This document shows positions 27,386-63,561 of a stretch of 64,000 nucleotides of DNA, piece after piece. The translations under genes and the position numbers were made by a program. Position 1 is the first letter of the stretch; each line of letters begins with the position of its first letter. The notes beneath the pieces were generated by a model. The model made no database searches. It was not told the DNA's origin and saw only the letters and a program-made list of their open reading frames with translations. Origin of the DNA: Takakia lepidozioides (Eukaryota > Plantae > Bryophyta); assembly GCA_030704615.1 (NCBI GenBank), contig CM060732.1:68386001-68450000 (forward strand). The letters run 5' to 3'.

Positions 27386-27398
27386 GACCTACAACCAG

Positions 27399-28597: not shown

Positions 28598-29949
28598 GAT
28601 CCCGTAAAAGCGTCTAAGTCCCAAGCAGCCCTCTAACAGTAGTTGGCGTTGAGGGCCTCAATATTGCTTTGGACAGTCAGAACTCTGTTGGAGCAAGCAG
28701 TTCTGCAGCTGTAGGTGAAATACCAAAGTGGGTGAAAGCTAGGCTTGGAACACAGCCAAAGACAGCCTCGAGGACCAAGGTGTTTAGCCACAAGGCCGTG
28801 GTGTATTGGAGCAGAGGAGCAGGAGCTGCACAAGTTTTTGCAATCAAACGTGGTTGCAGCCAGACACGCTCTGCACGAGGCAACCACGAGCGGGGGTTCA
28901 TTAGCAATGAACAGTTTGTTCTGTTTGAAGTAGATGCAGTCATTCGCAACGAGGACACCCGCAACCGTCTCAAAGCTTTCGAGTTGAGAGACTGTCAGAC
29001 CCTACCTTTATTTTCTTTAGTATTCAGTGAGCGGGAGATAGGGGAGTATTGCTTTGTCTCTACCTGGCAGAAAGAGGAGGAGGGTTGGTTAGAGCGAGCT
29101 ACTGTAGCTTGGGATAAGGTTAGTGGCAGGTTTCTGGACATAGATATACCTCCCACACCTTACCATCATGCAGAGCGAGGCACTTTGAGAGAAGTCTGAC
29201 AGGTGATAGCATAGATCAGGATTAGATCTTGCTTGGTCGGGCCTCTATTCTTCCCCTCCCTCTCTTTACTATTTTCATTACTTTGTACTTGTAGTTGCCA
29301 AAGCCTCTCTTGGTGGAGGCCAGTCAGTCCGGGGTTTTTGGGCTGGGGTATTCTGCAGGAACAACACTGCAGAGGGATTTTGGTGTGGGGGTGTTGATGT
29401 TTTGGTTTCTTGTGTTTGGATCCCCCCCACACCTGCATGCTTGACTGTGCACCATGTTGGTTTTGTGTGGGCGCTTACTTTCATAGGGATTAGGCCAGAT
29501 TTGATCACCGGTCAATCCTAGAGTATACTGTCGGTGGTGAGGCTGGAGTGATGACCAGCAAGACCACCAGTGTTTCCTCTATGGTGAGGCTGGGTTGATG
29601 ACCAGCCAACCATAGGAGTTCTTGCGGTGGATGCAGGTGCAGGTGCCCTTAGCCACTAGGATATGACCCTTAATCCGCAACAGGTGCTCACCCGTGTCAC
29701 TATTAGAATTAGTACTAGAGCCTTATAGTGTTACATGGGGGAGGTGCGGGTTGTGAGTGTCATCACGGAGTCACCCAAGGGTTTTGAGGGGAGTACGGCT
29801 ACACGCGGTAGCAGTGAGAGTGGGTTCACAAGACGAGGTGCTCGGTTCAGACCATCTTCATCTCCACCCTGAACTAGTGCAGAGTCTGACACAGACTCGG
29901 AGGCTTCATCAACAGGTGTGCAGTTTCCTTCGCCATTGTTGTGGGACGA

Positions 29950-31284
29950 CATGGAGGAGATGTATGGAGCTACCAAGGGGCCTCGTAGGTACTCTGGAGC
30001 TGTGGGCATAATCGAGCTGGATGACTTTATCCAGGAGTTTGACAGCTGGTGTGATTTGCAGTAGATGCGCAATGAACAACCCCATTCATGGCGTGGAAGG
30101 GACTGTTCCAGCATTTTGAAGGCTCGCATATGGACGATTACCACGAGTTCAGGCAAGGACATGAAGCAGAGATTTGAGGAGTGGAGGATGTATTGGTCAC
30201 CTGATTACGTTTCCATTACTCGAGGCACGACGCAACCAATAGCTGCATCAGCACCAATATCTCCCACTGCCAGCACTAGTAGTGGAACAAGTAGTGTCGG
30301 TACTTCTGCAGGTGGTACCAGTTCAAAAGGTGCTACTACTCCTTCTGCCACAACTACAACACATGTGCCTAGATTCAACCCGGTGGTGGAGTTCTTCCAG
30401 GAGTTGCGGACGAACTACCAAGGCGTACGGACAGAGAAGCTTCGAAGTTTGCAAGACTTCCAGCGCAAATCCAGTGAGAGCTTGCGAGAGGCCTACACTC
30501 GTATGAGGCGCTTGATAAGTGTGACCCAAGGGTTACTAAAGCTTAGGCAATCCAGTTCTGGTATGGAATTTTGGACAAGGAGCTCAGGAGAAGGGTGCGG
30601 GATGCAACCCTGTTACAAGCGGCCCAACCCATATTAGCAGATGTGTTTCTGCTGGCTGAGCGGATTGAGTTCAACATGGTGGAAGAGCGAGTTGTTACCA
30701 TTGGATTTGGCAAGGACATGCCTGCACGAGGTGCAGCTGCCAGCCAACAGGCACAAGGGACTGCCCAACAGTGTGGTCAGGGGGGCAAGGTTGCCCAACC
30801 CAAATTCCATGGAGCTTACAGGGGACCTCAGGTGCAGAGGCCAGTAGCATCTTTTGCAGGCCAACAGCAACCAGGGGTGGTATGTTGGACATGTGGAGAA
30901 CCCCATGTCAAGAAAGATTGCCCAGAGAGTGGCAAAGGGTCGGCACAAACACAGCTTGCACAGTTGCAATGTGGGCATTGTGGCAAGTATGGGCATGGAG
31001 ATGCCCAGTGTTATGACTTGCACCCTGAGTTGCGGCGAGGCCAGTTCCAAGGGAACAATGGTGGCCGAGGGCGAGGTGGAGCACCTCAGAGAGGACAAGG
31101 TGGTGAGGCACGAGGTGCAGGACAAGGGCAAGCACAGTATGGCCAAGGACGCGGAGGCCAGGGCGTTGACCAAGGTATGGCCAACCGGCTTCAGCAGCTA
31201 GAGCAAAGGTTTGCTGCCATGGCCACAGCTCAAGTGGTACCAGCTCCAAGACCTGAGGGTCCACCTCCTGTTTCTCCTCAGTAG
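29950..31284 (+). pseudogene. gag with two zinc knuckles
   Basis: ELDDFIQEFDSWC, ESLREAYTRMRRL, CWTCGEPHVKKDC and CGHCGKYGHGDAQC; stops and frameshifts present. Confidence 0.85.
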
Positions 31285-31899
31285 CGTCATCCTGACGGAG
31301 GAGACATGGGAGGCATGGGATTTATGTGTGGGGCAGCACTACCACTAGTGCAGGTGGAGTCTGCTACAGCCGTCACTCGAGGAGCAGCACGAGTTCCTGA
31401 GCCACGAGGTGCAGAGGTGGAGTTGGATCCACAGCGTGGGGAGGCAAGCCGTAAGGCTAGGTTGCCTCAATCATTCATCTTGGCGGAGACAGGGTCGACA
31501 ACATCCATGGCACCTAGTTCTCGCCCGATAGATACTGAAGCAGAGGCCGTTATTGTGCCATTGGGAAGAGCTACACGTGCAGCACTGACACCTGCTGCCA
31601 AGGCTAGTGCAGCCAGTGTGTTGTTGGGGGCGGCCACCTCTGTGTGTCAGGCCCCACTGTTCTCGGCAACCATGATTGCGATGCCGGGGGTAAGACCAGC
31701 TGCAATGTTCAGACTAGCAGCAACACTCTGTGAGAGTGGGGAGGTCACTTCATCTTCTGCGGAGTTAGTGGAAGGTGTAGTGACAAAGGGATCCTCGGAT
31801 TTGAGGGTCAAGACTGTCACGGCTGCGCCATGGCAAGCTGCAGCTGCCAGGTTGACGGAGCTGCCAGCTAGGCCAGCCTTTGAGCGCGCCATGATGACA

Positions 31900-32300
31900 C
31901 CTGATGTTGTCTTGTTAGACAACCAGGATGACATTTTCTCTTTGAGTGGACCGGCAGGCAAGAGGTACCGGCCACTGCGGGTCTTGTTGGACTCGGGAGC
32001 TCAGCCACTGATGTTGGGCAAAGTCGGTATTGCAGGTTTGGGCCTCATAGAGGCGGATATGTAGCCTTGTCCCTTACAGATACAGACATCTCTGGGAGGA
32101 TCAGAGCAGGCTCGAGGCATGACACGGTGCGAGTTGGCCATTAGACTACAGCCGGATCATCCTATAGATGGCTCAGTGATGCGAGCCAAGGCCATTGTGA
32201 CAGACACAGTCTCTTACGATATCCTCATTGGTGGGCAGTGTTGTATCCCATGGGCTTCATCCTGGATTTTTGGGAGGAGTCAGCATCCTACAGGCCTGGA
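31900..32300 (+). pseudogene. Retroviral-type aspartic protease
   Basis: VLLDSGAQ active site and YDILIGG; stop at 32062 and a frameshift at ~32235. Confidence 0.85.
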
Positions 32301-32699
32301 TGGCAGTCAGGGGATGGTCGTCGTGTACAGCTCCATGTGACATTCATTGGGGGTGTTGCTGCTGCCCAGCGGGGCAAGATGCCAACACTAGCAGCCTTCA
32401 CAACTGCAGTTAGTTGGCCTGGAGAGTTGCTGGAGGGCAATGCCCATGCAGAGGATGTGCCACCTCCAGCAGAGCAGGATGACATGCATGGTACAGCGGA
32501 GTTGCCTGCCATGGTTGCTCACACTCCATTGTGGGGTACGAGCAAGGATTTGCAGCAGGTTGCTGATAGACGTGTGCAACAAGCCTGGGTAGATGCCTTT
32601 GTACCGTCAGGAGAGGAGGAGAGTGCGGTGATTGCACCAGAACCACCTCAGTTGTCGCCATTGGACACCATACCTCTTGTATGGCAGTGCCCGGATGAA

Positions 32700-32926
32700 G
32701 GCATATGTCTTCTGGACTTGTTTGGCGGGATCAGCACTGGATTGGCTGCAGTGTTGCAGGCAGGTGTACGAGTTCGACGTTACTTGTATGTGGAGAGGGA
32801 TGAGACTGCACGACGCGTCTCACTGCGCCATGTTGCTCAGTTGGTACAGCAGTACCCTGATTTGTTGCCAGTGTCTGCAGTTCGTGGATACCAGCAAGCC
32901 TTGCCAGCAGACATCTCTTTGCTGGG
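32700..32926 (+). CDS. C5 cytosine methyltransferase (DNMT3-like), N-terminal part, motifs I-III
   Basis: LLDLFGGISTG (motif I), YLYVERD (II), ADISLL (III); cut by the MULE at the TSD. Confidence 0.9.
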
Positions 32927-32980
32927 GGGGGCTGCTATTTCATGAGCCATGAGCCATGAGCGGCATGAGCCATGAGCAGA
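32927..32980. repeat. Left TIR with tandem CATGAGC 7-mers
   Basis: CTATTTCATGAGCCATGAGCCATGAGCGGCATGAGCCATGAGC, inverted relative to 48275-48347. Confidence 0.9.
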
Positions 32981-33389
32981 GTCGTAAGTGTGGAAAAAAA
33001 CATGAGCAGCACTATTTTCCGGAAATGAGTGTCCGCGGGAATAGGGTTTAGGGTGCCACGGTCATAGGGGGAGAAGGACCTCCCGATGAAGGAGGTTCGG
33101 CAATGTTATTTAGAATTATATATTGAAAGGCAATGTTTCGCGAATGGTAGGGTGGTACTGCTCTGTACAATGGGGGCCCATTTCAGCCTACCAGCCATTT
33201 GCAAAATTCACCCACACTCCCAATCCCAAACGAAATGAGCAATGACGCATTCTCGGAACGATGGACACAGAATAGAATAAAAAGAGGGCACAATGAGGTT
33301 TTTATTGATCCACATGAATTGCATTTGAAGCACGTCTACTGTGCTGATTGTGCCATCAAATCTTGAGCCCTGTGCCTACTGAATACAAG

Positions 33390-33953
33390 TCACGTTGTCA
33401 ATGGGACTTCGACTGCTCTCAGAACTAGCTCATGAGTCATGGGGCTCCTCCATGTAAAGTCGATTGCAGCCGTTGTACCGCCCCTAGTGATGTTCACCAC
33501 AATGTCCTGCCCTTCAATCATACCACCATCGAATATGGAAATCTTCACGTTTTCGTCGTCCACACCAATGCGAATGTCCCCATACAATGGAGAAGAGGAG
33601 CGCACTCCTCGAGGAGAATAGGTCTCTCCGATGGAGTCCACCCACGTCCAGTGGCAGCAGTTCCACCGCAACAGCATAGCAGTGCGCCTTCTTCTGCATG
33701 GGTGACCGTCGTAACTGGGAAAATCGGAATCGAGGATGCGCAGGAGCCACGGACTCCTCAGACCAAGATCGTCACCCCGCTCGAAGGCGTAGTGGCCTAC
33801 GATATACTCAAAAGCCACCAATGTTTCCACAATCGAACCAGTATCTTCTGTGTAATCTGTGTACCAGATAACAATGTCTCCCGATGTGGCCGAATACATT
33901 GCATAATCGATGCCTCCAAAGGGGCAGTCGTCCCGGTTCCGGAAGCACGGCAT
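33390..33953 (-). CDS. Orphan cargo protein A (187 aa), paralogue of 34504-35082
   Basis: Intact ORF starting MPCFRNRDDCP; alignable end to end with protein B. Confidence 0.75.
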   Translation of the reverse strand: MPCFRNRDDCPFGGIDYAMYSATSGDIVIWYTDYTEDTGSIVETLVAFEYIVGHYAFERGDDLGLRSPWLLRILDSDFPSYDGHPCRRRRTAMLLRWNCCHWTWVDSIGETYSPRGVRSSSPLYGDIRIGVDDENVKISIFDGGMIEGQDIVVNITRGGTTAAIDFTWRSPMTHELVLRAVEVPLTT

Positions 33954-34503
33954 CCTTGCAAAGGAGGACCTGAGGACGACTTGGATGTCGATGACCTTGC
34001 GGACAGCTACGAAGCCCTTAGATTTTGGAAATGATACGAAGCGGAAGAGCAGTCCGGCCTCCAATAATGGAGCATCTGGGTCACACGTACCCACCGACGG
34101 AGGTGGAACGTGTTCATCACGGCAGCGGTGGATGAAGCCATACATCTTTCTCATCAACAAGTTATAGTTTGAGATCTGCCACCGAAGTCCATCCCCCCGG
34201 ATGGAAATTCGGCGCCGCATTTACATCGAAGAGGGGATGGACTTCGTCGTGTCCAGTGGCTATCGGCCCACCTGGCAGTGACTGCCCATAGTTTGCATGG
34301 CAGGGTAGGAAACAGAAACGGCTACATTTATGCAGCAGCCAATCTTCATCGGTCCAGGATCCTGTAGGGGGGAAATTTAAATGTGCCCTAGAGTGTTTGT
34401 GAGGAATTGCAGCGTTAGCTTGAACTTTTTCCAGCCACCGCGCTGCTCCTCCTCCATCCGGGAGCTGCTGTCATTGAGCGTACTCCGCTACTCTTTTTCA
34501 AGG

Positions 34504-35082
34504 ATGCCGTGCCGCCGAAATCCAGCCGACTGCCCTTATCATGGCCACGATTATGCTATGTTCAAACCAGAATCAGGAGACATCATTGTCTGGCTCTCCG
34601 TTTTCACAGACGCTGCTGGAATCAAGCAAGAGTCTTTGCGCGCAATGGAGTATCTGGAGGGCTATTACCGCTTTGAGCGAGGTGAGGGCGAGGGTCAATG
34701 CGGTCCGTGGGTCCTGAAAATTGTTGACCTCGATATACCAAGCTGGAAAGGGATGCCGGACAGATCACGCACGGCCTCGCTTTGGCGCTGGAACTGCTGC
34801 CAGTGGACCAGGGAGGACGGCACCGGGGAAAACTATATACGTGCAGATCACTCCGCTCTTCCAGTGTATGGAGACATTCGGCTTCGTTGCGAAGACGAAT
34901 CGCACGGGCACATGAGGCCCACAGTGACCTTGTCAATGTATGATGGTGGTATCATTGATGGACATGACATTGTCGTCGGCTCCAGCAAGGGCAGCAGAAC
35001 GACCGAATTGCAGTTTACCTCGAGGTGCCGCAGCAGTGATGAGCTTGTTTTGAGGGGTATCGAAGTTCCGTCGACTTGGTGA
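34504..35082 (+). CDS. Orphan cargo protein B (192 aa)
   Basis: Starts MPCRRNPADCP; shares DYAM, SGDI, FERG, RWNCC.W, YGDIR, DGG.I.G.DIVV and ELVLR..EVP with protein A. Confidence 0.75.
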   Translation: MPCRRNPADCPYHGHDYAMFKPESGDIIVWLSVFTDAAGIKQESLRAMEYLEGYYRFERGEGEGQCGPWVLKIVDLDIPSWKGMPDRSRTASLWRWNCCQWTREDGTGENYIRADHSALPVYGDIRLRCEDESHGHMRPTVTLSMYDGGIIDGHDIVVGSSKGSRTTELQFTSRCRSSDELVLRGIEVPSTW

Positions 35083-35337
35083 AGCCCATGTAGAAGGAGG
35101 AAGGGCTTAGTTTTGTCTGCAGTTGGTAAATGTGAGACATCGTGTCTGATCAATAAACCATCGTACCTCACTTCTGTATGATTGTGTTTCATTGTGTTGA
35201 ATAACTGTCGGAATTGGCCCACTGTTTACAATTTGATGTCTCATTTCTACAATGTGTCTGTCCGGATGAATATAGCAGAGTAACCGTTATGTGAGTGATG
35301 TGTCAAGATATACCAGAGTAACGCCATGTCGGACATT

Positions 35338-36130
35338 GAAATGCGGCACCGCATTTCCATGTCGGCATCGAAATGCGGCGCCGCATTACCATGTCGGCAT
35401 CGAAATGCGGCGCCGCATTTCCATGTCGGGATCGAAATGCGGCACCGCATTTCCATGTCCGACAAGAAATGCGGTGCATCATTTCCGTCCAGGTACACGA
35501 AATACCAACACGGGTCTATAAATTGATCAGAAAACGAGGTTGGCATTGCAAATGCGGCGACGCATTTCCAGCTTGGCAATGGAAACTTCTTTTTGGACAA
35601 GGGAATGCGGTGCCGCATTTCCGTACAACACTTCGAAAAGTGTGACATTTCCGACCAGCGCGATGGAATGCGTTACCGCATTTCCGAGAGAGGGTCTGCA
35701 AATGGACAAATTGCGATGTCCGTTCTGGAAATGCGGCGCCGCATTCCATGTCCGTCATCGACTTTTTTTTTACAATGGAATGCGGTGCCAATTTTTTGCT
35801 GATGGGCCTGCAGTTCGAACAACGACCATCCCCAATACTGAAATGCGGCACCGCATTTTCAATCCGCCATCTCGACCTCCTTGTTCGACCTCGTTGTTCG
35901 ACCTTGTAAGCGTGGTGGCATCCATGCAATGAGCGGGAGAGGCCAAAACTGGCGTGTGGACAAAGGAAATTTTGGAAATGCGGCACCGCATTTCCAATTC
36001 AGATTACTTTTTACTATGCCAACATTGAAATGGAAAATTTAGTCCCTCCCCTGTTTTGGAAATGCGGTGCCGCATTTCCAAAAGAGGTTCTTAGAGTTCC
36101 CCTGTTTGGAAATGCGGTGCCCCATTTCTG
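35338..36130. repeat. Palindrome array 1 (~14 copies of GAAATGCGGYRCCGCATTTC)
   Basis: Copies at 35338, 35370, 35402, 35434 and 35466 (32-bp period), then ~35549, 35602, 35665, 35728, 35777, 35840, 35975, 36059 and 36109. Confidence 0.95.
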
Positions 36131-36314
36131 ATTTTGGGAGCGTCGTGGTTTGGACGATTGTGTGGCTGGAATGCACACTGGAGAGGGGTCACGAATGTCG
36201 GGCAGAATTTCCTTTATATACTCTGGAAGAGAATTTACATTTACAGAGACTTCATTAAAATTCTATTAATCTTGAAAATCATCCGAATCCTCATCCTGTT
36301 CTAGACTGTCCTGC

Positions 36315-39300
36315 TCATCCTCCACCCCTCAGTGCCTTCTCATCTCCAGCGGACTGCTCGTTGGCCAGGCTTTCGAAAATCCCATCTTCCCCTTGCGGAA
36401 CTGTCCATCTCACCTCCGTTGGGTCGTCTTCCTCCCTGTCTGCGTCGCTCTCATCCGCTGAATCACATATGTACTTTCGTACCCGTCTACCTGTCTGAGC
36501 TGCTGCCAACTCTTTCCTTATCCTTCTGTCCTCCCTAGCCCTCTCCAAAATCTGCTCTACTTTACTGGGATTCTCACTTCTTCTAATCGCTGTATTTGCG
36601 AGTTTAGCTGCATAACTAGGAAGGGAGTAGTCCCTCACCGGGCTCGTCATGAAAGTCGGCCCTCGCAAAGAACGGGACATTCTTCCTGGCAGGAAGTGTA
36701 GGCCCTACATGTTTCGACCCGGACCCTGCAATCCTGCACATGACAATCATCAACGAGACTAATGAGAACCACAGTCGGGAAATTCGTTTGACATAAATGA
36801 CCCAGAAGGCTTTGCAAACTTACAATGTTTGCACTCACTCGTATTCCGGGTTCTCCTCCGCATCAATGTCCACTGTGTCTTCCTCGGACTCCGACGAATC
36901 CGAGGAGACTTCCGCTCTGTCGGGAGCCTTCACATTCCGTTGCAGCCCTCCAGATGGGATCCCCACACGGATGAATCCTCTCGTAGGCAAAGAGGTGCCG
37001 GTCGGAAAACCGCCCAGCCCACATTGAGGCACCTGTTACAATGCCATCCACACATTACACATGGCGCTTCAGATGTTGCGAACTACATCCTAACGAGAAT
37101 TTGCAGAACAGCATAGATCAAGATTCTGCATACCTGTCCCACAGATGAGGTCGAGCACTGTGCCCTCCACGTCTGTGCATGTCTCCATAATTGTCTGAAT
37201 GAAGGCAGGGCTCCGAGTCCGTGAGTACCGCAGGGGTTCTTGAAGTGAGGCTATGAGGGAGAAGTTCCTTGGGAACGTTGTTGAACAGAACGTCGTAATC
37301 GAGTGGGTCGCAGTTCGGGTCAACCTTTCCTCCCTCCTTCCGGAAAGCAAAGGTGGAGTTCTCCTTCACAAAGCAGTATGCATCGAACTGCTTCGTCTGC
37401 ATACACAGGGGAAAACGATTAGAAACCGAATGCGGCACCGCATTTGAAAACACCCAAGCAAATGAATGGACGAGTGCCAGTGTCGTAATCACCTTCTTCC
37501 CTTCCGACCGAAAGGCCCAGTGTGTTGATGCACGTCCACTTCTTTTTCAGAATCGGGACGGCGCTCTTGCGGGTCCACTTCGCAATTCCTGTCTGAGTGT
37601 TTTTTCCTCTGCTCGCCAGGACAACCACACAGCCTCTGTCGTCCAACACCATGCGGGCAAGCCCGAATCCTTTCTTCCAAAAGTCCTCCGAGTACCTGTT
37701 CCAAGATGGCAAAGCTTGCAGTCCTTCCACAGGCTCTCCGTCCGGAATATCCAAGATGATCATATCGCAAGACCACTCGGTGGCATTCCGCCCCTCCTAC
37801 AATCCTTGTCTGCACACACCCTCTCAAAGAACGAGACCATATTCTGAAATCCTGGGGTGTCGGAAGGCTCTTCGGCAGTCGCCTTCTTCAGTGCTCTGCC
37901 CTTCAGACCCTCCATGGTCTTCATGTATGCCAACTTGGCTGCCCGTCCATCCAAAGCCGCCAAGAAACTCTCATTTACACACTGGACTACAGTTTCGGGA
38001 GCCACTTTCGGCCTCTTCATTTCCACCGGCTCGAAAGGGTGCCCCCCTGGGGGGTTGAAGAGTGCCTTCTTTGCCGAGCCAGTTCTCGTGCCTCTCGTGA
38101 CAACGGTGGGCACAGGGGAGGCAGCCTGCGTTTGGGGGGGTGGGCTGGTTGCAAAGTCTCCATCGGAGTCCTCTTCCTCACCCTCTTCCTGAACAGGCTG
38201 TTTCTGCTTCTTCGTTTTGGCGGGTGTCACAACAGCTGCTCCTTGCTGGCGAGTCCTCTTCTTCGACCCCTTCTGTTGGGCCTGCACAGCTGCATCCACC
38301 GTCTTTTGTGCCATCTCAGCTGCCTTTCTGGATTCTTCCAGAGCAGCAGATTCCTTTGCCGACTTTGGCCCAGCAGGGACACGTCTTTCCTTTCTCTTCT
38401 CTTCTGCCAAGGCGTGCAGATCTTTCTCAGACTCGTCAACAATACCGCCAGACATGTCCAGGTACCACGGGCATCCAACGAGATGCGCGGGATGCCATTG
38501 TTTCTGCATCTCGGGTGTGTAGACACAGCTTGGGCCCGCCACGGTCCAAGCCATGAAGAACGGGGGCTCTTGAGCCAGGGCCCCTGTCTGAAGGAGCACG
38601 TATTTCATATACCTGCAAGGCAGTCAGCATGCGTGAGCAAAAGTTGAGACCAACCTACTGGCAGAGTGCCACCAAAAACATAAAATGCGAATGCGGTGCC
38701 GCATTTCCGAGACAAACCTCGTAACCAGGCTTCGCATACAAGGGCAGCTGTGCTTCACCTGTAAACAATTCGCATTGCAGCTTTCCCGCTCCCTCCTGAT
38801 GTGTAAACTCCACGCTCCTTCTTGCTGTCTGTAGCTCTCTGGCGAAAAGGTTGTCCTTGTACGCACATCTGAAACGTGTCACGTAGTCTTCCAATGTCTG
38901 TGTTCCATCCCATTTGACGTACAAGCCGAACGAATTTGTGTGCATTACGACTTGCTCCTTCGCATTCGACATTACCTGCGATTCCCAAATGCATTGTCAC
39001 GTAGCAGTTCAGGGAATTCATGTCAGAAAAGCAAATCTGGGGAAGTACCTTGAATTACCTGGAACCACCAAGTCATACGGTTGAGCCACACATCCACTGC
39101 AGGGTCGGAAACTTCCAGTGGAAAAGACCACATTGTCCTTATGCTCTCGGATGCATTCCAGATCGACAGCCACCGTGTCTGCCATTTCCGATCCAATGTC
39201 AGGAGCTGGAAGAGAGTGGCTATTGCTAGGAAGGAACTTCAGTGCATTGAAACCTCACCTTCTCTTTCGCCTCCACACATGCCGTTGAGAGGTGATGCAG

Positions 39301-41380
39301 TTTCTCCAATTGCATGGTCGGCTGCATGGCCCGAGAATAGTGTTTTGCAATCTCGGGGATGAAGTCCTTTCCAAGTGCCGGATCTGCAATTGCCACCAGC
39401 TTCACAAGCTTTGACTTGTATTTGGTTCTGGACTTGACACCGGCTTCCTTCAAGTGCTCAGTCAATGACTGCAACGTTTTGACCTGCCCCTCACTTTCCA
39501 TGAAGAAGCGTTTGGCATGGGCCAAATCCAGCTTGATGTTTGACTGCCAACAAAAACATGCAGAAGCGTTACATTCGATTCATGTGGAAACATTACTGAA
39601 AATTGGGGAAGGATGAGCAGAGGGAAATTGGAGGACGACTTACTTCGTATATCACCTCCACCATTCCATCCATAGTGAGACGATACCATGTCCGGTCTGT
39701 TTTTGCAACGGCTTTCTGAATGAGCTCGGGCTCCAGCATTTCCGCAAACATCTGCGGATCAGTGAGACCAGTTTTCCTCACCCTGTACAGCATATGTGCC
39801 ATGTGGGTATGCACGTACGCATTTTCAGTGACCCTGCAAGGCACACTCTCCAGTTCAGTACACGGAAGCACGGAAACAAACCAGAATGGAAACCGAAATG
39901 CGGCACCGCATTTCGAACGTGCTAGGGAGGGTATGAGTATCTTACGAGTTGAGGTCCGCCATGGCATTCTTGAGCAGGGAGGAGTCTGCCGCCTTCACCT
40001 TCAGGATGACACACTCCACCATGTAATGCCAGCCAATGTGCTTGGCATGGTTCTGCTTGATGTACTCCCACCAGGCGAGAAGTCGGTGATTCCCGTCCCA
40101 CACAAAGAACATTTTACCCGACATATGGCCGAAGTCGGGATCACCCTTCAGCGTCGCCTCGAATTCGTGGTTGCGAGTGTGCCAGTGGGTATCCCACGTT
40201 GACAATTCATCGGCAGTGGGTCCACGAGTTTCGCCGTCCTCATTCTCAATGGAAACGTAAAACGCTGCCGATCCCAGACGGTACCCTTCTCGAAATGCGA
40301 ACTTGAGCTTATCCACATCTCCGGGAAGGGCCTGCCTGACGATGGGAAGGGAGACCATGCGACAGAGTGGGATTCGAAGAGTCCGCTGGAATACCCTGCT
40401 GCCCAGAACTCTGCCAATGCTACTGTGTGTCTCCTCCAACATTTTATCCGCTGCACTTTTGAAATCCTCCGGAGACATGTCTGTAGGTGCCGGTAGTGGC
40501 TGAGCAGCTGGAGCATCCTCAACTGGAGCTGCACTCTGGGGCCTGTGTGCGGGCAATTCTGCCATTGCAGAGGCCTCCTCCGGGCCTGCTTGCTCATCGG
40601 TGGTGAGGTCTTGCTGCGAAGTTGAGCGGCAGCACCCTCCTCCGGTACCAAATCGAGATCAACGGTCGATCCCATTGCCTTCGCTGCAGCAGAGTCGGCC
40701 CCAACATCTGCAGGCGGGAAATCCTCCAGGAACTGAGCTTCAGCTCGTGGAAGCGGTTTTGCGGGAGATTGTTCGCCCGTCGCCCTGATTGCCTTCTGCT
40801 TCCTCATCCTTGCAGGTGAAGGTGTCTGCTGCAATTGAATCTGTCTTCTACCCTGCTGCTTCATTCGCGTTGGGGGGGTGAATCGGCCTGAGCCGGTTCA
40901 GAAGCCAGTAGAGGGACGGGCTGCTTCTTCTTCGACTTTGCTGGAGAAGGGCCCGACCCCTGCTGGCGATTCTCCATGACCGAAGAACGCGAGTCGATCT
41001 CTGGGACTTTGAACTTGCCCTTCGAAGACGCGTCTTTGAATCGCAGAGGGCTAGGCCCGGCAGGAATACCCGCGCTCGGGGATCGGGTGGGTGTACGTGC
41101 TGCAGCTAGCTCCTCGGACTCTTCCTGCGGCTCTTCGGATTCCTGCGATCCCTCCAGCACGTCCACCTTTCCTGTTAGGCATGCAAACATGTTCTGCATT
41201 CAAGTCTCCTAGCATTCAGTCTAAGAATTACAGAAGCAAAATGGGGGGTTCGGTGCTCGATCAGCTGCGCGCAGCCCGATCGCATGGAGCTCTCACTGGT
41301 GGCTGGGTTGCCTGAGTGGCCTGCTGCTCGGAGATGGCAATCTCCTCCTGTAGACGCATCTGCTTCCTCCCCTTCGGCAT
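36315..41380 (-). CDS. Multi-exon ParB/Srx-like domain + beta-class N6A/N4C DNA methyltransferase gene (several frameshifts in this copy)
   Basis: FFVWDGNHRLLAW (ParB-N-like, ~40070-40110). MIILDIPDG (~37740-37763; DPPY-position motif IV) precedes RSPAFIQTIMETCTDVEGTVLDLICGT^GASMWAGRFSDRHLFAYE (motif I, spliced across the ~37012-37132 intron). GT-AG introns link the intervening exons; termini are low-complexity. One transcript is inferred, not shown. Confidence 0.75.
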
Positions 41381-41817
41381 TGGCCTACGTCCGAAGTATA
41401 ATTTCCGGAGCTTGCGACGAGGTCTCCTGGCTGGTGCACGAACTCCCCCCCTCTCAGGTTCGAGCATAAGAAGAACAGAGAGAGGGAAAAGGGCCAAAGA
41501 GTGCAGATGGAAAGAGCGCGAGAGGGGTGACTGAGGAGACACGACAAAAGTAGATGAAACGGCGGTGATGCACCACTTGGGTTCGAAAGGGTTGGACGAA
41601 AGTGTCTCCTCGGGAGTTTGCGTCATTACGAAATTCGAATCGTTGAGGGTACGCCTGCCGTCCGAAAAACAAACATCATTATCGAACGGTCAGGCCGCGC
41701 CGCCTCATGCCCCTTCAGTCAGATAGAGTGCCGACATGTGCAGCAATTCCGTTGCTCCACGTGTTCACATTTCAAGGTATTTCCGTCCCAGCGTCTGATC
41801 AGTTGGAGCGAAAATGC

Positions 41818-43465
41818 GAATGCGGCGCCGCATTTCCGTTAAGTACCATCACTCTGCTACACATCCGTACTTGTTGGAAGAAAATGCGGCACCGCATTTC
41901 CGTTCCACCTTCACATACCTTAGTTGTTGAACGGAAATACGGTGCCGCATTTCCGTCCCACAGCTCCAAGTATGAGATTCAAAGGGAAATGCGGCGCCGC
42001 ATTTCCGTTCTGGAATGTCGAAAGGTGCGATTGGGACGGGAATGAGGCACAACATTTCAGTTCCCGTGGTTCATGATTTTCAATGTGAACGGAAATGCGG
42101 TACCGCATTTCCGTTCCCACTTCACATCCGTTAGATGATGAATGGAAATGCCGTGCCACATTTCCGTTCGGGAAAGTATAGAGGTCTCACCTGGACAGAA
42201 ATGCGGTGCCGCATTTCCGGTCCGGAAAGTTTGAAGGTCTCACATGGATGGAAATGCGGTACACATTTTCGTAGCACAGCTCCAGGCCCAATATACAAAA
42301 CGGAAATGCGGCGCCGCATTTCCGTTCTAGAATGTCGGAAGGTGCGACTCGAACGGAAATGCGGTGCCGGATTTCTGTTCCCGTTGCGCACGATTTTCAG
42401 TCAGAATGGAAATGCGGTACCGCATTTCCGTTCTGTAGAGTATTAACGTCTGACGCTGGCGGAAATGCGTGCCGCATTTTCGTTCCACAGCTCCATGCCT
42501 CACATACAAAACGGAAATGCGGCGCCGCATTTCCGTTTTGGAATGTCGGAAGGTGCGACTCCGACGGAAATGCGGTACCGCATTTCAGTTCCGAGGTTTC
42601 AGGATATTTCATCAGAACGGAAATGCGGTGCCGCATTTCCCTTTTGAATCTAATACATTCCGTTCTGGAATGTTGGGAGGTGCGACTCGGATGGAAATGC
42701 GTTGCCGCATTTCAGTTCCGACGGTTCACGATTTTCAGTCAGAACGGAAATGCGGTACCGCATTTCCGTTCTGGAATGTTGGTAGGTGCGACTCGGATGG
42801 AAATACGGTGCCGCATTTTAGTTCAGATGGTTCACGATTTTCAGTCAGAACGGAAATGCGTGCCGCATTTCCGTTCTGGATAGTATGAATGTCTCAAGCG
42901 GTCGGAATTGCGCTGTATGAAGCTGTCGGAATCGCACTCGGCTCCATGCATCAGATACAAAATGGAAATGCGGCGCCGCATTTCCGTTCTGGAATGTCGA
43001 AAAGTGCGACTCGGACGGAAATGCGGTGCCGCATTTCTGTTCCCGTTGTTCGTAAATCTCAATCAGAACGGAAATGCGGTACCGCATTTCCGTTCTGGAG
43101 AGTATGAATGTATTTTAAGGACGGAAATGTGCTGCAGCATTTCTATCCCTCAGCTCCATGCATCAGATACAAAATGGAAATGCGGCGCCGCATTTCCGTT
43201 CTGAAATGTCGGAAAAGTGCGACTCGGACGGAAATGCGGTGCCGCATTTCTGTTCCCGTTGTTCATAAATCTCAATCAGAACGGAAATGCGGTACCGCAT
43301 TTCCGTTCCACCTTCACATACCGTGCTTGCTGGATGGAAATGCGTTACCGCATTTCCGTTCTGGAGAGTATAAAGGTTTCCCCCGGACGGAAACTCGGTG
43401 CCGCATTTCCGTCGCTCTGGTGCATGACCAAGATGCAATACGGAAATGCGGCGCCGTATTTCCGT
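41818..43465. repeat. Palindrome array 2 (~30 copies, 52-54-bp period, ~211-bp higher-order unit) in the divergent promoter region
   Basis: ATGCGG cores at 41884, 41937, 41989, 42042, 42095, 42148, 42201, 42254, 42306, 42359, 42412, 42465, 42517, 42570, 42623, 42697, 42750, 42803, 42856, 42968, 43021, 43074, 43127, 43180, 43234, 43287, 43340, 43393 and 43446 (some degenerate). Confidence 0.97.
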
Positions 43466-43892
43466 CCACCAGCAATCGAAAGAATCACTCGGGACGGGAA
43501 ATCTGGAACCTGAATGGGTTGCATTGTTCCGAAACAACACAATTGCGGCCAGTCTTGATGAGCACAACTTGGTTGTCTGACCGTTTTAACCAGCAGTCCT
43601 GGCACTTGTCAGTGCGAACGTTCCTGTCTGCACCGAGAATACTGCTGGATCCACCCTCAGGAGAAACTGTCAGGAGATGTTATTTCGTCGCCGAATCGGC
43701 CATCATTGTCATACTCACTGGCTATGGAATCAAACCTCCCACCTTCATGCATGTAGCTTGAAACAATACTTTCCACTTCAATGTGCGACTTCCAATCGTC
43801 GATGGACTCCGCAGATCCACTTAGATGGTGCCTGTGAGCCTTGGTCTGTCGCTATACTGAACCTCGCACTTGCCAACTCCGTGCGGTGTTCG

Positions 43893-46800
43893 ATGGCTCC
43901 GAATTCCTACGCTATAGTTTGCTGTCCTCCGCAACTTGGGAGAGCCTGGATCCCAAACGAGGGAGGACTTTGCAGAGTGACTGAAACTTACCTTTGTTCC
44001 AAATTCAAGCTCAAACCGGGCACAGTTTATTTGGAAGAAGAAAGGAAGGATGTTCCTGGACAGGTTGACGAGACCATTGTCGTGCTAGGTAACGACGGAG
44101 GTTGCGGAATCGAATGGCACGTTCCCCCGTCAGACACCATCCTGTACCGAGCTGTGGGAATGCCCATTCCCTTTCCGAATCAGTCGCTGCCCACACCATC
44201 CACAAAGGAGTCCGGAAACCGAGAGGCGGCCACTGCCAACAGAGAGGTATGCAACGATAATCATTCCCGACCTGGACCGTCAAGACCCTCCATAGCTTCT
44301 CGTGTGGACGTATTCGACATTTCCGACGAGGAAGATGATTGCATTGAGGTACCCATGTCCTCCACACGGTCGTTCAAATCCGGCATGGACGTCTCTGTAG
44401 GTGCTACGCATGTGCCCTCGAGCATAACTCCAACCCGGTCCATTGTGCAGCTCCTACGACAACATCACCTCGATGGTTCTCGCTCCGAGCTGGCTGCTCT
44501 CGACTATGCCAAATTCCCAGTCAGAAAGGTAACGTTTCTGCCTCCCGAAGTCGATGGCAATGTCATCTTCGAGTTTCCACCTGTTTCTTCGTCAAAGAAA
44601 GCCTCCGGGATGTTAACAGACATGGATCGAAAGCATGACGGACACCCCTGGTGTGTGACGAAGACCAGTAGCACGAAAATTGCTGATGGTGTTCGTGTAC
44701 GATATGTCCTCTGTGCGGGGAAGCTGAGGTGCCTCAATCCCACCTGCTTCCACTTTCTCTCCAAAGGAGGGCGGAGAAACGAGACGGATTGGACTGGCAC
44801 AACGCATCATCCATTCATTGTCTCCAGCCAAGCTCCTGCGGGTTCTTTCAAGTGTGCACATTGCAAAGAACCACCGACGTGCATGTCCATGTGCAGAGCC
44901 AAGCAATATTACGTTATCCATTTGCTCCCGGACTTGACTAGAGCTTGCATACACGTTGGGGTCCACTGCCACCCCTTGGCGAGAGGCAACATGCGTGAGG
45001 CTGTGCAGGAAGCACACGACATCATAAAAGAGGAGGTGAAATTGAGCCCCGGAGCCAGACCAAAGCAGATTCAGCTGAAGGCAGCCCACAAGATTGCTCT
45101 TGGCAAAATCATGTCTGAAGATGGTTCCGACCGAGAGCCCTTGACCGAAGACGAGATGCGTGACCTCTTGGAGTCCGTCTCGCACGTTTGTAGTCCGAAT
45201 GTGCGGAATCACATCGTATCTTGCAAGCAGGAGTTCGGCAGGGGGTCGGACATGTACTCAATCCTGGAGGTGAAACGAATGACTGGATATGACTACATCC
45301 AAGGTAGCAGGTTTCCAGGGCAAGGCAGCGAATCCGATCGTTGTTACATTTTCAAAATGTCGACGTGTGGGCCTGGGAGTGGAGTCGACTTGGTCACTCG
45401 CATGACAACTGGAAACTTGTCGAATGCTTGGGTGATGTTTGATCACATCAAGCGAATTACAAACCATCAGTGGGTGACTATGGGTGCGCATGTTTATGAC
45501 TATCACTCCAAGAGGCTCATGACGATTGCAATCTGCGAGATGAAAGGGACACACAGTCCGAGATGCATCTGTGGGAGGGCATAAACGAGCAGATGGCAAG
45601 GGCGGGATTGCCAGAGCCCAATTTCAGGGGATTCATGGCAGACAACGCTCAGGCCAACTGGGCAGCGGTGCGGCGTGTGTACGGTGAGGACCCCAATGTT
45701 CCAATGGAGGGGAAAGAGAGATCCTGTGGATTCCATTGGATGCAGAGTCTATCCCACTACACTACCAAATTTGTTGCTAGCTCATTCCAGGCTGAACACC
45801 GTGTCCTTTGTACGGCGTGGAAGGATGCACCCACATTTGATGACGCGGAGGTTAAGTTTGCTATCATCGAGGCTTGGTGGAACACGTCAGGTGCAGTGGA
45901 GACAACCAATCTGGGAGCATTGCACAGCTGGTTGGGGTGGTGGCATTTTCGGTATCGACAGTTCGGACAGTACATGCGGGAGGTAGGCTGCTGTCAATTT
46001 CGTTCATTTGTCTTTCTGTTACGGACATTTCGATTGGTCCCTCACCATTGTTTGTGTCCTTCTAGGAGCGGTGCTTGGATTCCGACACGGACATGCCGAA
46101 CACGAATATGGCAGAATCGGTCCACTCCTCCTGGCGAGCGTCTTCTGCCGCACATCTGGTGGACGTAGTGACGGCCACAACGGAGGACATCGACAGAGCA
46201 ATCATGCAGCAAGCCACGTACTACAAGTTCCTGAGCGGCAAACAATGGGGCTTTGGGCCGGACAGGGAGGAATTGTTGGTACGAACAGCTTCGAGGTCCA
46301 AGAATCCAGTGAAATGGGCGACAGCATTGCGAGAGAAGATCAAAGGGACGCCTCTGCACCGCAGAGGTGAACACCTAGAGGGGGACGTCCGGACTCGCCC
46401 TGTCAGGCGGAGGATTGAAGAGGAACCCGGGTGCGAAGAGGATTCCTGGAGATCCGACAGGAACATTCGGACAGCACCTCGAGGTCCCGTCATGTTGCCG
46501 CACAATGTGTCTTCCAGCAGTGGAAGCCCAAGAAATTCCAGATCGCCGTCGCCTTCAACCGGGGATTTCGTGCAACAAATTCCCACCGCTCCCTTGCCCC
46601 ACATTCCGCCCGCTGTTATGCAGTATGGCCAAGCCATTGTGGAGACGACTGTGTCTGCATCACAGTGGAGAATTGCTCGCACAAAGCCGTCGTTTCGAGG
46701 AAGGTGTTCCGCAATTCGTGTGGATACACGGCAACGTTGTTTAGAGATGATAAGGAGGAATCCAGATGGGGCTGTCCCTGCTCCTACTTTTACAGGAAGA

Positions 46801-47496
46801 TTTGTCCATGCAAAGTTTGCGGAGGCGACAACCACCCAGTTCTGGTTCTGCAGGCACGACATTATGACTTGCGTGTATGGAAAGCCCAAGTACGGCATAC
46901 AAACAATGCCAGAGGCTCCCCCGGTGTGGCCGGTGGAACCAGGCTGCGATCTGAGTCAGGTTGAGGCCGACGCCCTTACCGCCGCAGGATTTCGGATGGT
47001 GCAGCGCACTGACGTCCCCAGAGAACCATTTCCGCTTCCACAGCCTCCACCACCGACCCCTGTGAGAGCAAGAACAATGGGACACGACAGCTCTAAGCAT
47101 CCTACACACCGTTGGGGGAAACCGAAGAGGCGGCGACCTCCCTCAAAAGTGAACGAGACAAGGATGGGGAATGCACTTCGGATGAACTGTACAATCCAGA
47201 GCTCGACAGAAGTGCCCCCACCAGGATTCGGGCGTGTGTATCAAATGGCCACGGCGGGCTCAGCTGTTCGCAATGAGGTGTACACCATCACCATTTCAGA
47301 ATTACCCACCTGCAATTGCACCGACTTCCAGATCATGGCGAACAAGGGGGCATCATACTGCCCTTGCAAGCATTTGTACTACGTGTACCTAAAGAGACTC
47401 CGTTGTAATTCCACAACTCATCACTTCATACATGCACCAGGGTTGAGCCCCCAGGAGGTTCACACTCTTCTGAATATGGATCCAGGGGACCAGTGA
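43893..47496 (+). CDS. MULE-family transposase: GCM/WRKY-like Zn domain, DDE core, C-terminal SWIM finger
   Basis: DGHPW..CAGKLRCLNPTC..CAHC..C.AK..HVGVHCHP; WVMFDHIKR (D1), FMADNA (D2), CGFH (CxxH), TNMAESVH (E); CNCTDF..CKH SWIM. Intron 45983-46065; one frameshift at ~45548 in a G run. Confidence 0.9.
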
Positions 47497-48274
47497 GCTT
47501 GGCTTGCGGTCCACATACAATGGTACGCCCATCCTTTTCGGATAGTAGAACTGTACTGCTGCCAGTACCTCAGACTCTGGCCACACAAAGGTCCGACATA
47601 TGTCTTGCCTACCAGTAACCTGTTTTGCTCGAACTAAGATATTACTATATCGTTCACTTGTTTCCACGTGCATGTATTTTTGTATGTTGGAGGGTTCATG
47701 TTTTTCTGCTTTCTGAAAACTTGCTTTCCTCATTCGACCTCCGACAAGGAAATGCGGCGCCGCATTTCCAAGTATCGTCGTAGGTACCCCCAGAGGCGGC
47801 CTTCGCCAACACCAAACCGCTCCGAAATTTCGCACGTGCGAACCCTAATGCGGCACCCTATTTCCCAGTTCAGTTGCAAACCTTTCCCGCCGAATACCCG
47901 AAGAAGACAGAATTGTGAAGTACTGCAGACTGTATTGGTGCAGACTCCATTGGTTCAATCGCGGCAAAAGGGTCAGCTTCATTCCAATGTTAAGGCATGT
48001 AAAACCGCGGAATACTCTATACAGGCCAGTATGCGACGTCCTTTTGCAGTGGTATACTGGATTTCCCGTTGCACGGTCACTTATTTCCATGAGCGGATCT
48101 AAAACACCATGAGCGGACTTGTTACTGACGACATATCTTCGCCGCATTACATGATCTGGAACGTCCAAAAACGGCAAGGTCAAATAAAAAACTATTATTT
48201 TAATACTTGTTTAATCTGCCGCATTTCCAAATTTGGAGGAGTCCGCTCATGAAATCCGCGTATCTTAGACTTCG

Positions 48275-48347
48275 GCTCACCGCTCATGCGGCTCATGCGG
48301 CTCATGGCTCATGGCTCATGGTTTCTGCTCATGAAATAGTAAACCTC
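48275..48347. repeat. Right TIR with tandem GCTCATG 7-mers
   Basis: GCTCATGCGGCTCATGCGGCTCATGGCTCATGGCTCATGG..GCTCATGAAATAGTAAACCTC. Confidence 0.9.
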
Positions 48348-48356
48348 TTTGCTGGG

Positions 48357-49105: not shown

Positions 49106-49109
49106 GGAG

Positions 49110-61199: not shown

Positions 61200-63561
61200 G
61201 AGGTTTACTATTTCATGAGCAGAAACCATGAGCCATGAGCCATGAGCCGCATGAGCCGCATGAGCGGTGAGCCGAAGTCTAAGATACGCGGATTTCATGA
61301 GCGGACTCCTCCAAATTTGGAAATGCGGCAGATTAAACAAGTATTAAAATAATAGTTTTTTATTTGACCTTGCCGTTTTTGGACGTTCCAGATCATGTAA
61401 TGCGGCGAAGATATGTCGTCAGTAACAAGTCCGCTCATGGTTTTTTAGATCCGCTCATGGAAATAAGTGACCGTGCAACGGGAAATCCAGTATACCACTG
61501 CAAAAGGACGTCGCAGACTGGCCTGTATAGAGTATTCCGCGGTTTTACATGCCTTAACATTGGAATGAAGCTGACCCTTTTGCCGCGATTGAACCAATGG
61601 AATCTGCACCAATACAGTCTGCAGTACTTCACAATTCTGTCTTCTTCGGGTATTCGGCGGGAAAGGTTTGCAACTGAACTGGGAAATAGGGTGCCGCATT
61701 AGGGTTCGCACGTGCGAAATTTCGGAGCGGTTTGGTGTTGGCGAAGGCCGCCTCTGGGGGTACCTACGACGATACTTGGAAATGCGGCGCCGCATTTCCT
61801 TGTCGGAGGTCGAATGAGGAAAGCAAGTTTTTAGAAAGCAGAAAAACATGAACCCTCCAACATACAAAAATACATGCACGTGGAAACAAGTGAACGATAT
61901 AGTAATATCTTAGTTCGAGCAAAACAGGTTACTGGTAGGCAAGACATATGTCGGACCTTTGTGTGGCCAGAGTCTGAGGTACTGGCAGCAGTACAGTTCT
62001 ACTATCCGAAAAGGATGGGCGTACCATTGTATGTGGACCGCAAGCCAAGCTCACTGGTCCCCTGGATCCATATTCAGAAGAGTGTCAACCTCCTGGGGGC
62101 TCAACCCTGGTGCATGTATGAAGTGATGAGTTGTGGAATTACAACGGAGTCTCTTTAGGTACACGTAGTACAAATGCTTGCAAGGGCAGTATGATGCCCC
62201 CTTGTTCGCCATGATCTGGAAGTCGGTGCAATTGCAGGTGGGTAATTCTGAAATGGTGATGGTGTACACCTCATTGCGAACAGCTGAGCCCGCCGTGGCC
62301 ATTTGATACACACGCCCGAATCCTGGTGGGGGCACTTCTGTCGAGCTCTGGATTGTACAGTTCATCCGAAGTGCATTCCCCATCCTTGTCTCGTTCACTT
62401 TTGAGGGAGGTCGCCGCCTCTTCGGTTTCCCCCAACGGTGTGTAGGATGCTTAGAGCTGTCGTGTCCCATTGTTCTTGCTCTCACAGGGGTCGGTGGTGG
62501 AGGCTGTGGAAGCGGAAATGGTTCTCTGGGGACGTCAGTGCGCTGCACCATCCGAAATCCTGCGGCGGTAAGGGCGTCGGCCTCAACCTGACTCAGATCG
62601 CAGCCTGGTTCCACCGGCCACACCGGGGGAGCCTCTGGCATTGTTTGTATGCCGTACTTGGGCTTTCCATACACGCAAGTCATAATGTCATGCCTGCAGA
62701 ACCAGAACTGGGTGGTTGTCGCCTCCGCAAACTTTGCATGGACAAATCTTCCTATAAAAGTAGGAGCAGGGACAGCCCCATCTGGATTCCTCCTTATCAT
62801 CTCTAAACAACGTTGCCGTGTATCCACACGAATTGCGGAACACCTTCCTCGAAACGACGGCTTTGTGCGAGCAATTCTCCACTGTGATGCAGACACAGTC
62901 GTCTCCACAATGGCTTGGCCATACTGCATAACAGCGGGCGGAATGTGGGGCAAGGGAGTGGTGGGAATTTGTTGCACGAAATCCCCGGTTGAAGGCGACG
63001 GCGATCTGGAATTTCTTGGGCTTCCACTGCTGGAAGACACATTGTGCGGCAACATGACGGGACCTCGAGGTGCTGTCCGAATGTTCCTGTCGGATCTCCA
63101 GGAATCCTCTTCGCACCCGGGTTCCTCTTCAATCCTCCGCCTGACAGGGCGAGTCCGGACGTCCCCCTCTAGGTGTTCACCTCTGCGGTGCAGAGGCGTC
63201 CCTTTGATCTTCTCTCGCAATGCTGTCGCCCATTTCACTGGATTCTTGGACCTCGAAGCTGTTCGTACCAACAATTCCTCCCTGTCCAGCCCAAAGCCCC
63301 ATTGTTTGCCGCTCAGGAACTTGTAGTACGTGGCTTGCTGCATGATTGCTCTGTCGATGTCCTCCGTTGTGGCGTCACTACGTCCACCAGATGTGCGGCA
63401 GAAGACGCTCGCCAGGAGGAGTGGACCGATTCACCCATATTCGTGTTCGGCATGTCCGTGTCGGAATCCAAGCACCGCTCCTAGAAGGACACAAACAATG
63501 GTGAGGGACCAATCGAAATGTCCGTAACAGAAAGACAAATGAACGAAATTGACAGCAGCCT
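61200..63561 (-). mobile_element. Second, inverted copy of the MULE right arm (equivalent to 45985-48347)
   Basis: Near-identical reverse complement including the TIR, palindrome and transposase last exon (62051-63481); scattered substitutions and a 1-bp deletion at ~63373. Confidence 0.95.

Follow-up and report, generated by a model that had tools for sequence, protein, structure and literature searches.

A Mutator-like transposon of Takakia lepidozioides carrying a ParB-methylase fusion gene and an array of palindromes: a candidate self-recognition system

The transposon and its insertion site

Here we describe a 64,000-nucleotide stretch of the Takakia lepidozioides genome (GenBank assembly GCA_030704615.1, contig CM060732.1, positions 68,386,001 to 68,450,000 of the forward strand), called the window below and numbered as a whole from its first letter, and a Mutator-like DNA transposon of 15,421 bp that lies within it (32927..48347). 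The element carries a transposase gene and, head-to-head with it and read on the minus strand, a nine-exon cargo gene for a protein of about 1,200 amino acids, with a ParB/Srx-fold N-terminal domain and a methylase fold at its C-terminal end. The original prediction, made from the letters of this DNA, had described a prokaryote-type beta-class methyltransferase domain in this place and had remarked that a mobile source of such genes would be notable; the domain does lie inside a transposon bounded by a 9-bp duplication. That prediction did not include the ParB domain, the element with its palindromes, the frameshifts of this copy or the algal precedent.

The ends of the element and its target-site duplication were read directly. 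The duplication is perfect, the left copy (32918..32926, plus strand) being identical to the right one (48348..48356, plus strand). The left terminal inverted repeat, followed by a 7-bp tandem unit (32927..32977, plus strand), and the right one, which has the same 7-bp unit (48282..48347, minus strand), match at 17 of their first 21 nucleotides. Mutator-like elements (MULEs) are defined by a target-site duplication of 9-11 bp and terminal inverted repeats, and both are present here. An inverted partial second copy of the right end (61200..63561, minus strand) is 99.5% identical to the main copy, with 12 differences in 2,363 bp, of which one is a gap; it has the same terminal base and diverges from the main copy exactly after 48347. 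We regard the element as a transposon because of the 9-bp duplication, the inverted ends and the second copy ending at the identical base, and the methyltransferase-like stretch almost certainly belongs to its cargo. The second copy is itself broken off at 63561 by unrelated repeat-like DNA.

The transposon sits in a Gypsy element and splits its C5-methyltransferase region; the PF00145 match of the Gypsy element lies to the right of the insertion, and the reading frame of that element is continuous across the reconstructed empty site. CpG content is 0.72 in the cargo gene and 0.78 in the transposase gene, as against 0.22-0.46 in the neighbouring Gypsy segments.

The transposase gene (43800..47496, plus strand, start approximate) has one intron, one frameshift near 45545 and a Cys/His-rich N-terminus. 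Its motifs are D (MFDHIK, 45435), D (MADNAQ, 45635), CxxH (45725), E (NMAESV, 46105) and SWIM (47311), and we take it to be of Mutator type from a comparison by eye with MULE motif patterns. In Pfam the split transposase pieces matched SWIM only, at an E value of 0.063, under the Pfam cut-off, and no MULE family; a PDB sequence search with the N-terminal half returned chance matches only. The Cys/His-rich N-terminus (44600-44800, HDGHPW...CAGKLRC) presumably resembles a GCM-type zinc domain, and found no match in Pfam or PDB.

The pairing of the two genes recurs elsewhere. Among the best 80 of 238 metagenome loci matched by the ParB exon, a related transposase was found in 10 of the 25 loci with at least 8 kb of upstream sequence (10 of 37 when the requirement is lowered to 4 kb). 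About eight of these are distinct, the rest being duplicates, and all 10 linked transposases lie on the strand opposite to the cargo.

The cargo gene

The cargo gene begins with a probable first exon (41297..41380, minus strand, ATG at 41380). The next exon (39946..41166) encodes a low-complexity N-terminus, frameshifted in the window copy, and then the ParB/Srx-fold domain. Four internal exons with GT-AG junctions follow (39833-39644, 39543-39259, 39178-39059 and 38975-38759, together 38759..39833), and the middle region that they encode belongs to no known family. The methylase fold is divided among the last three exons: the first of these (37493..38612) ends in its N-terminal half, with motif IV (DIPD), PxWN and motifs V-VI; the second (37134..37396) holds motif X and the first part of the S-adenosylmethionine (SAM)-binding motif I (DLICGT at 37152-37135); and the last modelled exon (36833..37032) completes motif I and carries motif II (FAYE at 36991-36980), an acidic tail and the stop. 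All are on the minus strand.

From 40460 the model comprises 970 open codons over seven GT-AG introns (80-146 nt), with six small indels read through; without this read-through it stops at codon 444. The 970-amino-acid model aligns end to end with two proteins of the moss Ceratodon purpureus, P0016 (M758_1G295400; 28% identity, E 2e-102) and P0017 (M758_11G066700; 25%, E 4e-55), both annotated as hypothetical proteins and both colinear with the middle region as well. Other copies of the element were judged from contigs of sequencing runs, and in one contig of run X9, taken as RNA by guess, two predicted upstream introns are joined with 0-2 mismatches. A bacterial contaminant was considered and rejected, as introns are present and the window holds what we take to be a plant ribosomal protein L4 gene.

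The window copy carries frameshifts of 1-2 nt, and its methylase pieces are mutually out of frame. Such damage would be expected of a passively captured, decaying passenger in the style of a Pack-MULE, in which DIPD would be a loss-of-function change, and most of the metagenome copies are broken too. A contig of run X4, from another study, differs from the window over 36300-38593 by 11 gaps and 4 substitutions, and in it the frame is restored. Run X1 shows the same indels relative to the window as X4, and therefore the family consensus is open. Indels of 1-2 nt are in excess, with gaps outnumbering substitutions as errors of a long-read consensus would produce, and such errors are the probable cause in the window; real decay of the window copy may also contribute, since the density of errors is uneven (one gap in 2,363 bp between the two copies of the transposase end). 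Differences from a paralog in run X11 also speak against a passenger. Among the 25 of 35 listed differences on which the calculation is based, 16 are synonymous and 9 non-synonymous (proportion of synonymous sites changed, pS, 0.53; of non-synonymous sites, pN, 0.086; pN/pS about 0.16, p 1e-5), which indicates that the methylase domain is under purifying selection. Exon structure and head-to-head layout are preserved, moreover, across relatives of 25-45% identity. We consider the passenger explanation very improbable and largely refuted by these observations.

Two further observations concern the structure of the gene. Just past the modelled stop lies another minus-strand frame of about 129 amino acids with an acidic end (36315-36704); judging by paralog contigs in X9, a splice acceptor may lie near 36522, and the frame may be an extra or alternative exon. 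In two of the metagenome loci (L010:11797-11967 and L039:3766-3939) one cargo exon is inverted relative to the rest of the gene.

The ParB/Srx-fold domain

The N-terminal domain spans about 40460-39946 on the minus strand, has DGNHR at 40097-40083 and shows the ParB/Sulfiredoxin fold with its G-x-x-R signature. In a fold search its AlphaFold model (mean confidence, pLDDT, 87.7) was closest to KorB (Z 8.0, root-mean-square deviation 2.5 over 90 residues), followed by Srx (7.1) and PadC (7.0), and then by SerK, ParB-N and Spo0J, while unrelated rows scored Z 2.4 or less. We take the first 10 of the 14 rows to be ParB/Srx kin. Within the alignment of the domain, WDGN is invariant in 27 of 27 rows.

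Sequence searches were less productive. The ParB family of Pfam was matched neither by the window pieces nor by eight exon-level homologues, and PDB sequence searches with the queries A2, A4 and L001 exon b gave chance matches only. Relatives of the ParB exon were found in none of 30 and none of 57 viral contigs and in none of 16 prokaryote genomes, in a weak search that relied on one or two short patterns.

The palindromes

The second component of the element is a short palindrome with an 18-bp core, AAATGCGG-N2-CCGCATTT, which occurs 44 times in the window (with at most two mismatches), 43 of these in the main element. Twenty-five copies form an array between the divergent genes (41818..43461), mostly 53 bp apart; 13 lie downstream of the cargo gene (35339..36127), with four spacings of 32 bp; three stand singly in cargo introns (37428..39913, starting at 37428, 38689 and 39896); one is at the 5' end of the orfA frame, one near the right end and one in the second copy. 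Spacings of 53 bp (16 times) and 32 bp (4 times) are the commonest. Cargo exons, transposase coding sequence and the window DNA outside the two copies contain no palindrome.

A short motif is thus multiplied in the element (43 copies) and absent from the exons of its two main genes, which is the same pattern as that of the sites of VANC (PMC5735166) and of the repeats beside PAG3 (Bostrychia preprint, bioRxiv 10.1101/2025.02.11.637652). Among relatives, four loci were examined, and in three of them the space between the two genes holds repeat arrays of other sequences. L007 (4879-5385 and 7482-8305), L074 (8130-9200) and L059 (6176-6554 and 8648-9220) have their own, different tandem and palindromic arrays between the transposase and the cargo gene, which agrees with a divergence of target motifs from family to family.

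Palindromes near both ends of the element (34205 and 47750), their helical phasing and the short, imperfect terminal repeats (17 of 21 nt) would also suit a transposition cofactor, which would bind the internal sites and help to pair the ends of a 15-kb element, as TnpA does for Spm, with the methylase fold acting only as a dimerization or DNA-binding module. ParB domains are known to bridge DNA. Most of the sites, on the other hand, lie well away from the ends, and three are within introns, a distribution that better fits an action across the chromatin of the element, and similar cargo is described on the unrelated superfamilies Sola, Plavaka and Zisupton (PMC12477816; bioRxiv 10.1101/2025.02.11.637652). 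On balance we think a cofactor role improbable.

The methylase domain

On the minus strand motif IV reads IILDIPDG (DIPD codons 37751-37740, with GAC at 37742-37740) and is followed by PSWN (the PxWN motif, 37709-37698). A 96-nt intron (37492-37397) separates motif IV from motif X. Motif I is itself split: SPAFIQTIMETCTDVEGTVLDLICGTG, which ends in VLDLICGT, stops at a GT donor after 37134, and ASMWAGRFSDRHLFAYE resumes after a phase-1 GT-AG intron of 101 nt (37033..37133). The intron in motif I had been read as a sign of long residence in eukaryotes, and this reading is strengthened by the relative L001, in which both methylase introns have the same position and phase in a domain that is only 25% identical.

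The order of motifs, IV before X-I, is that of the beta class as defined in PMC7544214. With its exons joined and X placed at the breaks, the domain was scored against a profile of 33 beta-class methylases from phages and reached 15.3 bits, as against 3.9 bits for the best of 1000 shuffles; the profile is only partly independent because it was grown from a weak match to a relative's exon. Among homologues, P0016 passes the PF01555 cut-off (30.4 bits against 26.7) and P0017 falls below it (24.1). A profile of the family matched DpnA (E 6e-5) and CcrM (E 0.039) in PDB. In the ESM Atlas, PF01555 was the assignment for 22 of 30 matches of the motif IV exon (best 0.91, with only 144 shared features) and for the top three matches of a relative's motif X-I exon. 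The motif order, the score relative to shuffled sequences and the passage of P0016 over the PF01555 cut-off support the beta-class N6_N4_Mtase identity first proposed for this DNA; the expectation that the spliced product should resemble PF01555-like profiles is borne out by the joined domain, with the partial circularity just noted, and by P0016.

Other searches were silent. Pfam returned no methylase family for the window pieces taken alone or for eight exon-level homologues (the nearest, L001 exon b, matched PF01555 at E 0.049 only), a word-based search with the motif IV exon found no match among 57 candidates, and a first metagenome scan found none in 118 stretches. A fold search with the 88-residue motif IV piece gave a best Z of 6.2 and a list in which methylases are mixed with small alpha/beta folds (Z 4.8 for MboII), and is uninformative on methylase class. 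A phage match (H9) to the motif I piece was set aside as chance, since the annotated methyltransferase is on the other strand.

Loss of the motif IV aromatic

The catalytic motif of these enzymes, (D/N/S)-P-P-(Y/F/W), has an aromatic residue in fourth position that stacks on the flipped target base, and in METTL14 an eroded motif, EPPL, marks a non-catalytic subunit (PMC7544214, PMC10406627). DIPD in the window departs from this pattern. The original prediction had left open whether the change was decay of one copy, by a single base from DIPY, or an altered site common to the family, and only the second stands: DIPD is not copy decay, because same-species contigs show it fixed and 24 of 26 relatives lack an aromatic at position 4. 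Over 37680-37830 no substitution reaches 1% among 1101 contigs of run X1, which may be the source sample; an X6 contig spanning the site has none; run X8 had no contig over the motif IV stretch; and neither X4 nor the X11 paralog (35 of 205 bases different) shows a change at 37742 (C>A) toward Tyr, Phe or Trp. Among the relatives, position 4 is non-aromatic in all eight HMMER matches (DVPS, DIPD, DLPE, DVST, DCPN, DMPT, DVPT and DLPT), in one of the two Ceratodon proteins (DTPD in P0017, DTPF in P0016) and in all but one of the 16 locus rows whose motif is complete, one of these 15 having a TAG stop. A ninth HMMER match, the helicase P0015, was left out of the count as chance. The residues seen across relatives are D, E, S, T, N, R, G and M. 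Erosion is incomplete, as two of the 26 keep an aromatic.

Elsewhere in the domain, the Asp and Gly of motif I and the Glu of motif II are retained, and the motif I Phe and motif X His are replaced. The PxWN Trp is invariant in 14 of 14 rows. From the sequence we judge the active site likely to be weak or dead.

The same residues lend themselves to another explanation, in which the variant site still works. As an active amino-methyltransferase led by its ParB domain to the palindromes, the protein would write N6-methyladenine (6mA) or CG-site N4-methylcytosine (4mC) there as a mark of self, and base stacking would fall to a different aromatic, for instance the conserved Trp of PxWN. Besides that Trp, the Asp/Asn and Pro of motif IV are retained together with the residues of motifs I and II named above; the domain is under purifying selection; and relatives with DTPF and DIPW exist. 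The tRNA m1A58 methylases work with a D-x-P motif that lacks the aromatic. The comparable Ectocarpus protein has been read as one that modifies its own element (PMC12477816). Position 4, however, varies freely, unlike a catalytic residue under selection, the usual motif X His and motif I Phe are absent, and genomic 6mA is stated not to be abundant in streptophytes (bioRxiv 2026.05.21.726589). An active enzyme is the main rival to the reading that we prefer, a serious though somewhat doubtful one. P0016, which combines an aromatic motif IV with a score above the PF01555 cut-off, is the best candidate for an active or domesticated member of the family.

A proposed role in self-recognition

Based on these observations, we suggest that the cargo protein is a self-recognition factor, a VANC-like accessory protein that keeps copies of the element unsilenced and whose methylase fold is weak or dead; to this mechanism as a whole we give a probability of about one half. 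The protein would dock as a dimer on the palindromes of its own element, where spacings of 53 and 32 bp, about five and three helical turns, would make the sites face the same side of the helix. From there the ParB domain would let it spread or bridge, in the way that ParB acts from parS. The methylase fold, with the SAM-pocket residues that it retains, would serve mainly as a SAM-binding scaffold for DNA contact or dimerization in the manner of METTL14, and the element would be shielded from host cytosine methylation much as VANC shields VANDAL. Every step from binding onward is one that we infer.

Several observations weigh against this proposal. On the side of the element, a related transposase was not seen in 15 of the 25 long loci; the palindromes could equally be sites of the transposase; the transposase of AtMu1 alone is reported to be anti-silencing (bioRxiv 2026.08.24.746577); and the higher CpG content is confounded by the element being younger than the Gypsy segments around it. 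On the side of the gene, neither methylase intron is joined in any run contig, and one X11 contig, again taken as RNA by guess, continues unspliced into the 96-nt intron. Residues that an active enzyme would need are conserved (the first Asp/Asn and third-position Pro of motif IV, the Trp of PxWN and the Glu of motif II), and the aromatic is retained in P0016 and in L038 (DIPW). The TAG in L027 may derive from the Trp codon TGG, and many locus rows are decayed copies, in which a residue may have changed only after the copy had died. The ParB tree (of 23 rows, with 6 short ones dropped) is without resolution at its base, and therefore we claim no order of events and no direction of motif change.

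A bolder version of self-recognition would credit land-plant Mutators with a full parS/ParB-style system, in which a nucleotide-gated ParB clamp on phased palindromes carries a D-x-P methylase that writes a non-5-methylcytosine mark and so blocks silencing. We think it unlikely; if true, it would mean that a chemistry of methyl transfer has gone unrecognised and that 6mA or 4mC in land-plant DNA has a local source.

Relation to known systems

The closest published parallel is Sola1-1_Ec32 of Ectocarpus, which has a 1,104-amino-acid gene for a ParB-like and N4C/N6A methylase protein opposite its transposase (PMC12477816). Such proteins have been proposed to attach to the element that carries them and to modify it, and similar ones are noted in green and red algae (same source). 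The Takakia gene shares the fusion, the size of about 1,100 amino acids and the position opposite the transposase of a giant DNA transposon. Compared by description, the Ectocarpus element is a Sola-1 transposon of a brown alga with a 4-bp duplication, whereas ours is a Mutator-type transposon of a land plant with a 9-bp one; the accessible account of the Ectocarpus protein mentions neither motif IV nor palindromes. In red-algal Plavaka elements both kinds of domain are cargo of a DNA transposon, and arrays of tandem inverted repeats lie beside the ParB gene; there the domains are in separate genes with other partners, PAG2 (PF01555 and SET) and PAG3 (ParB and 2OG oxygenase), and here they are fused. 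The same preprint notes PAG homologues in Chondrus Mutator elements (bioRxiv 10.1101/2025.02.11.637652). ParB and methylase as transposon cargo are already published for Ectocarpus Sola1 and red algae; new are the land-plant Mutator carrier, a defined candidate for a palindromic target and the erosion of the active site across the family.

The resemblance to VANDAL and VANC of Arabidopsis lies in the accessory protein and in a short target motif that is multiplied in introns and in non-coding DNA between genes and at the termini, and that varies from family to family. Binding and a demethylating effect have been shown experimentally for VANC (PMC5735166), whereas our case for the Takakia protein is one of prediction. 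The accessible account of VANC mentions no ParB or methylase domain.

Prokaryotic PF01555 enzymes (DpnA/M1.HpyAVI-type, CcrM, M.RsrI and M.MboII) share the motif order IV...X-I-II and profile similarity with the cargo methylase; their motif IV is (D/N/S)PP(Y/F/W), whereas ours is D-h-P-x in a gene with spliceosomal introns. Like DN4MT1a/b of Marchantia and N4CMT of rotifers, the cargo has a beta-class fold of bacterial origin in a eukaryote. The link to these 4mC writers that the original prediction had drawn found no support in a comparison by motif: DN4MT1 (TSPPY) and N4CMT (SPPY) are host genes with shown 4mC activity (bioRxiv 10.1101/2021.02.12.428880; PMC10406627), whereas the family has D/N-x-P, with Ser at position 1 in none of 27 rows (window included). 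This comparison of motifs gave no evidence that the family is a source of DN4MT1 or N4CMT, and that reading was rejected. The word ParB does not occur in the accessible text of the Marchantia preprint (bioRxiv 10.1101/2021.02.12.428880). Iyer et al. 2016 described ParB-linked Dam enzymes of chlorophytes and inactive DIRS methylases (PMC4738411). A 2026 preprint on DAM retrotransposons concerns retroelements and, in its accessible portion, mentions neither MULE nor ParB. We found no paper on a land-plant Mutator with ParB-methylase cargo or on an eroded motif in it, in a search that left repeat databases and most subscription journals outside.

According to the Bostrychia preprint (bioRxiv 10.1101/2025.02.11.637652), no transposon protein other than VANC has been shown to bind its own element and change it epigenetically. 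From algae, and by prediction alone, ParB-methylase cargo has been put forward as another class of this kind. This class now gains a complete, multi-copy and apparently young land-plant member with a candidate palindrome target and homologues in a model moss, and binding, anti-silencing and catalysis are therefore directly testable. The natural pair of DxPD and DxPF proteins can discriminate between the methylase as writer and as scaffold, and a palindrome and protein module that lifts silencing could serve as a tool for transgene expression.

Other features of the element and the window

Two divergent paralogous open reading frames inside the element (33390-34220, minus strand, and 34381-35082, plus strand) are 47% identical in amino acids and 63% in DNA. 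The pair has no Pfam match and no counterpart in the 80 related loci, and is a third cargo without known function.

The Gypsy retroelement split by the transposon (28618-32926 and 48348-52000) has a C5 DNA methyltransferase between its gag/protease-like region and its reverse transcriptase. Its domain matches over 28618-52000 are PF00145 (E 6e-11), RVT_1 and an integrase zinc finger, and in its C5 methyltransferase it resembles KnitGypsy-Dnmt3 (PMC5890265). At its edge (27927-28514) a 10-bp unit with the consensus GCTGTGTCGG is repeated about 60 times.

Two host genes in the window appear intact. One (20099-21455, minus strand) is presumably a plant-type ribosomal protein L4 gene and the other (18131-18742, plus strand) looks to us like part of an AFG1-type ATPase gene, both by motifs that we recognised without a search. 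A unit of about 570 bp is repeated four to five times at 6842-10337, its copies 84-96% identical, and is possibly a repeated block of exons. A further decayed Gypsy-like element (23460-27388, minus strand) has an observed/expected CpG ratio of 0.22.

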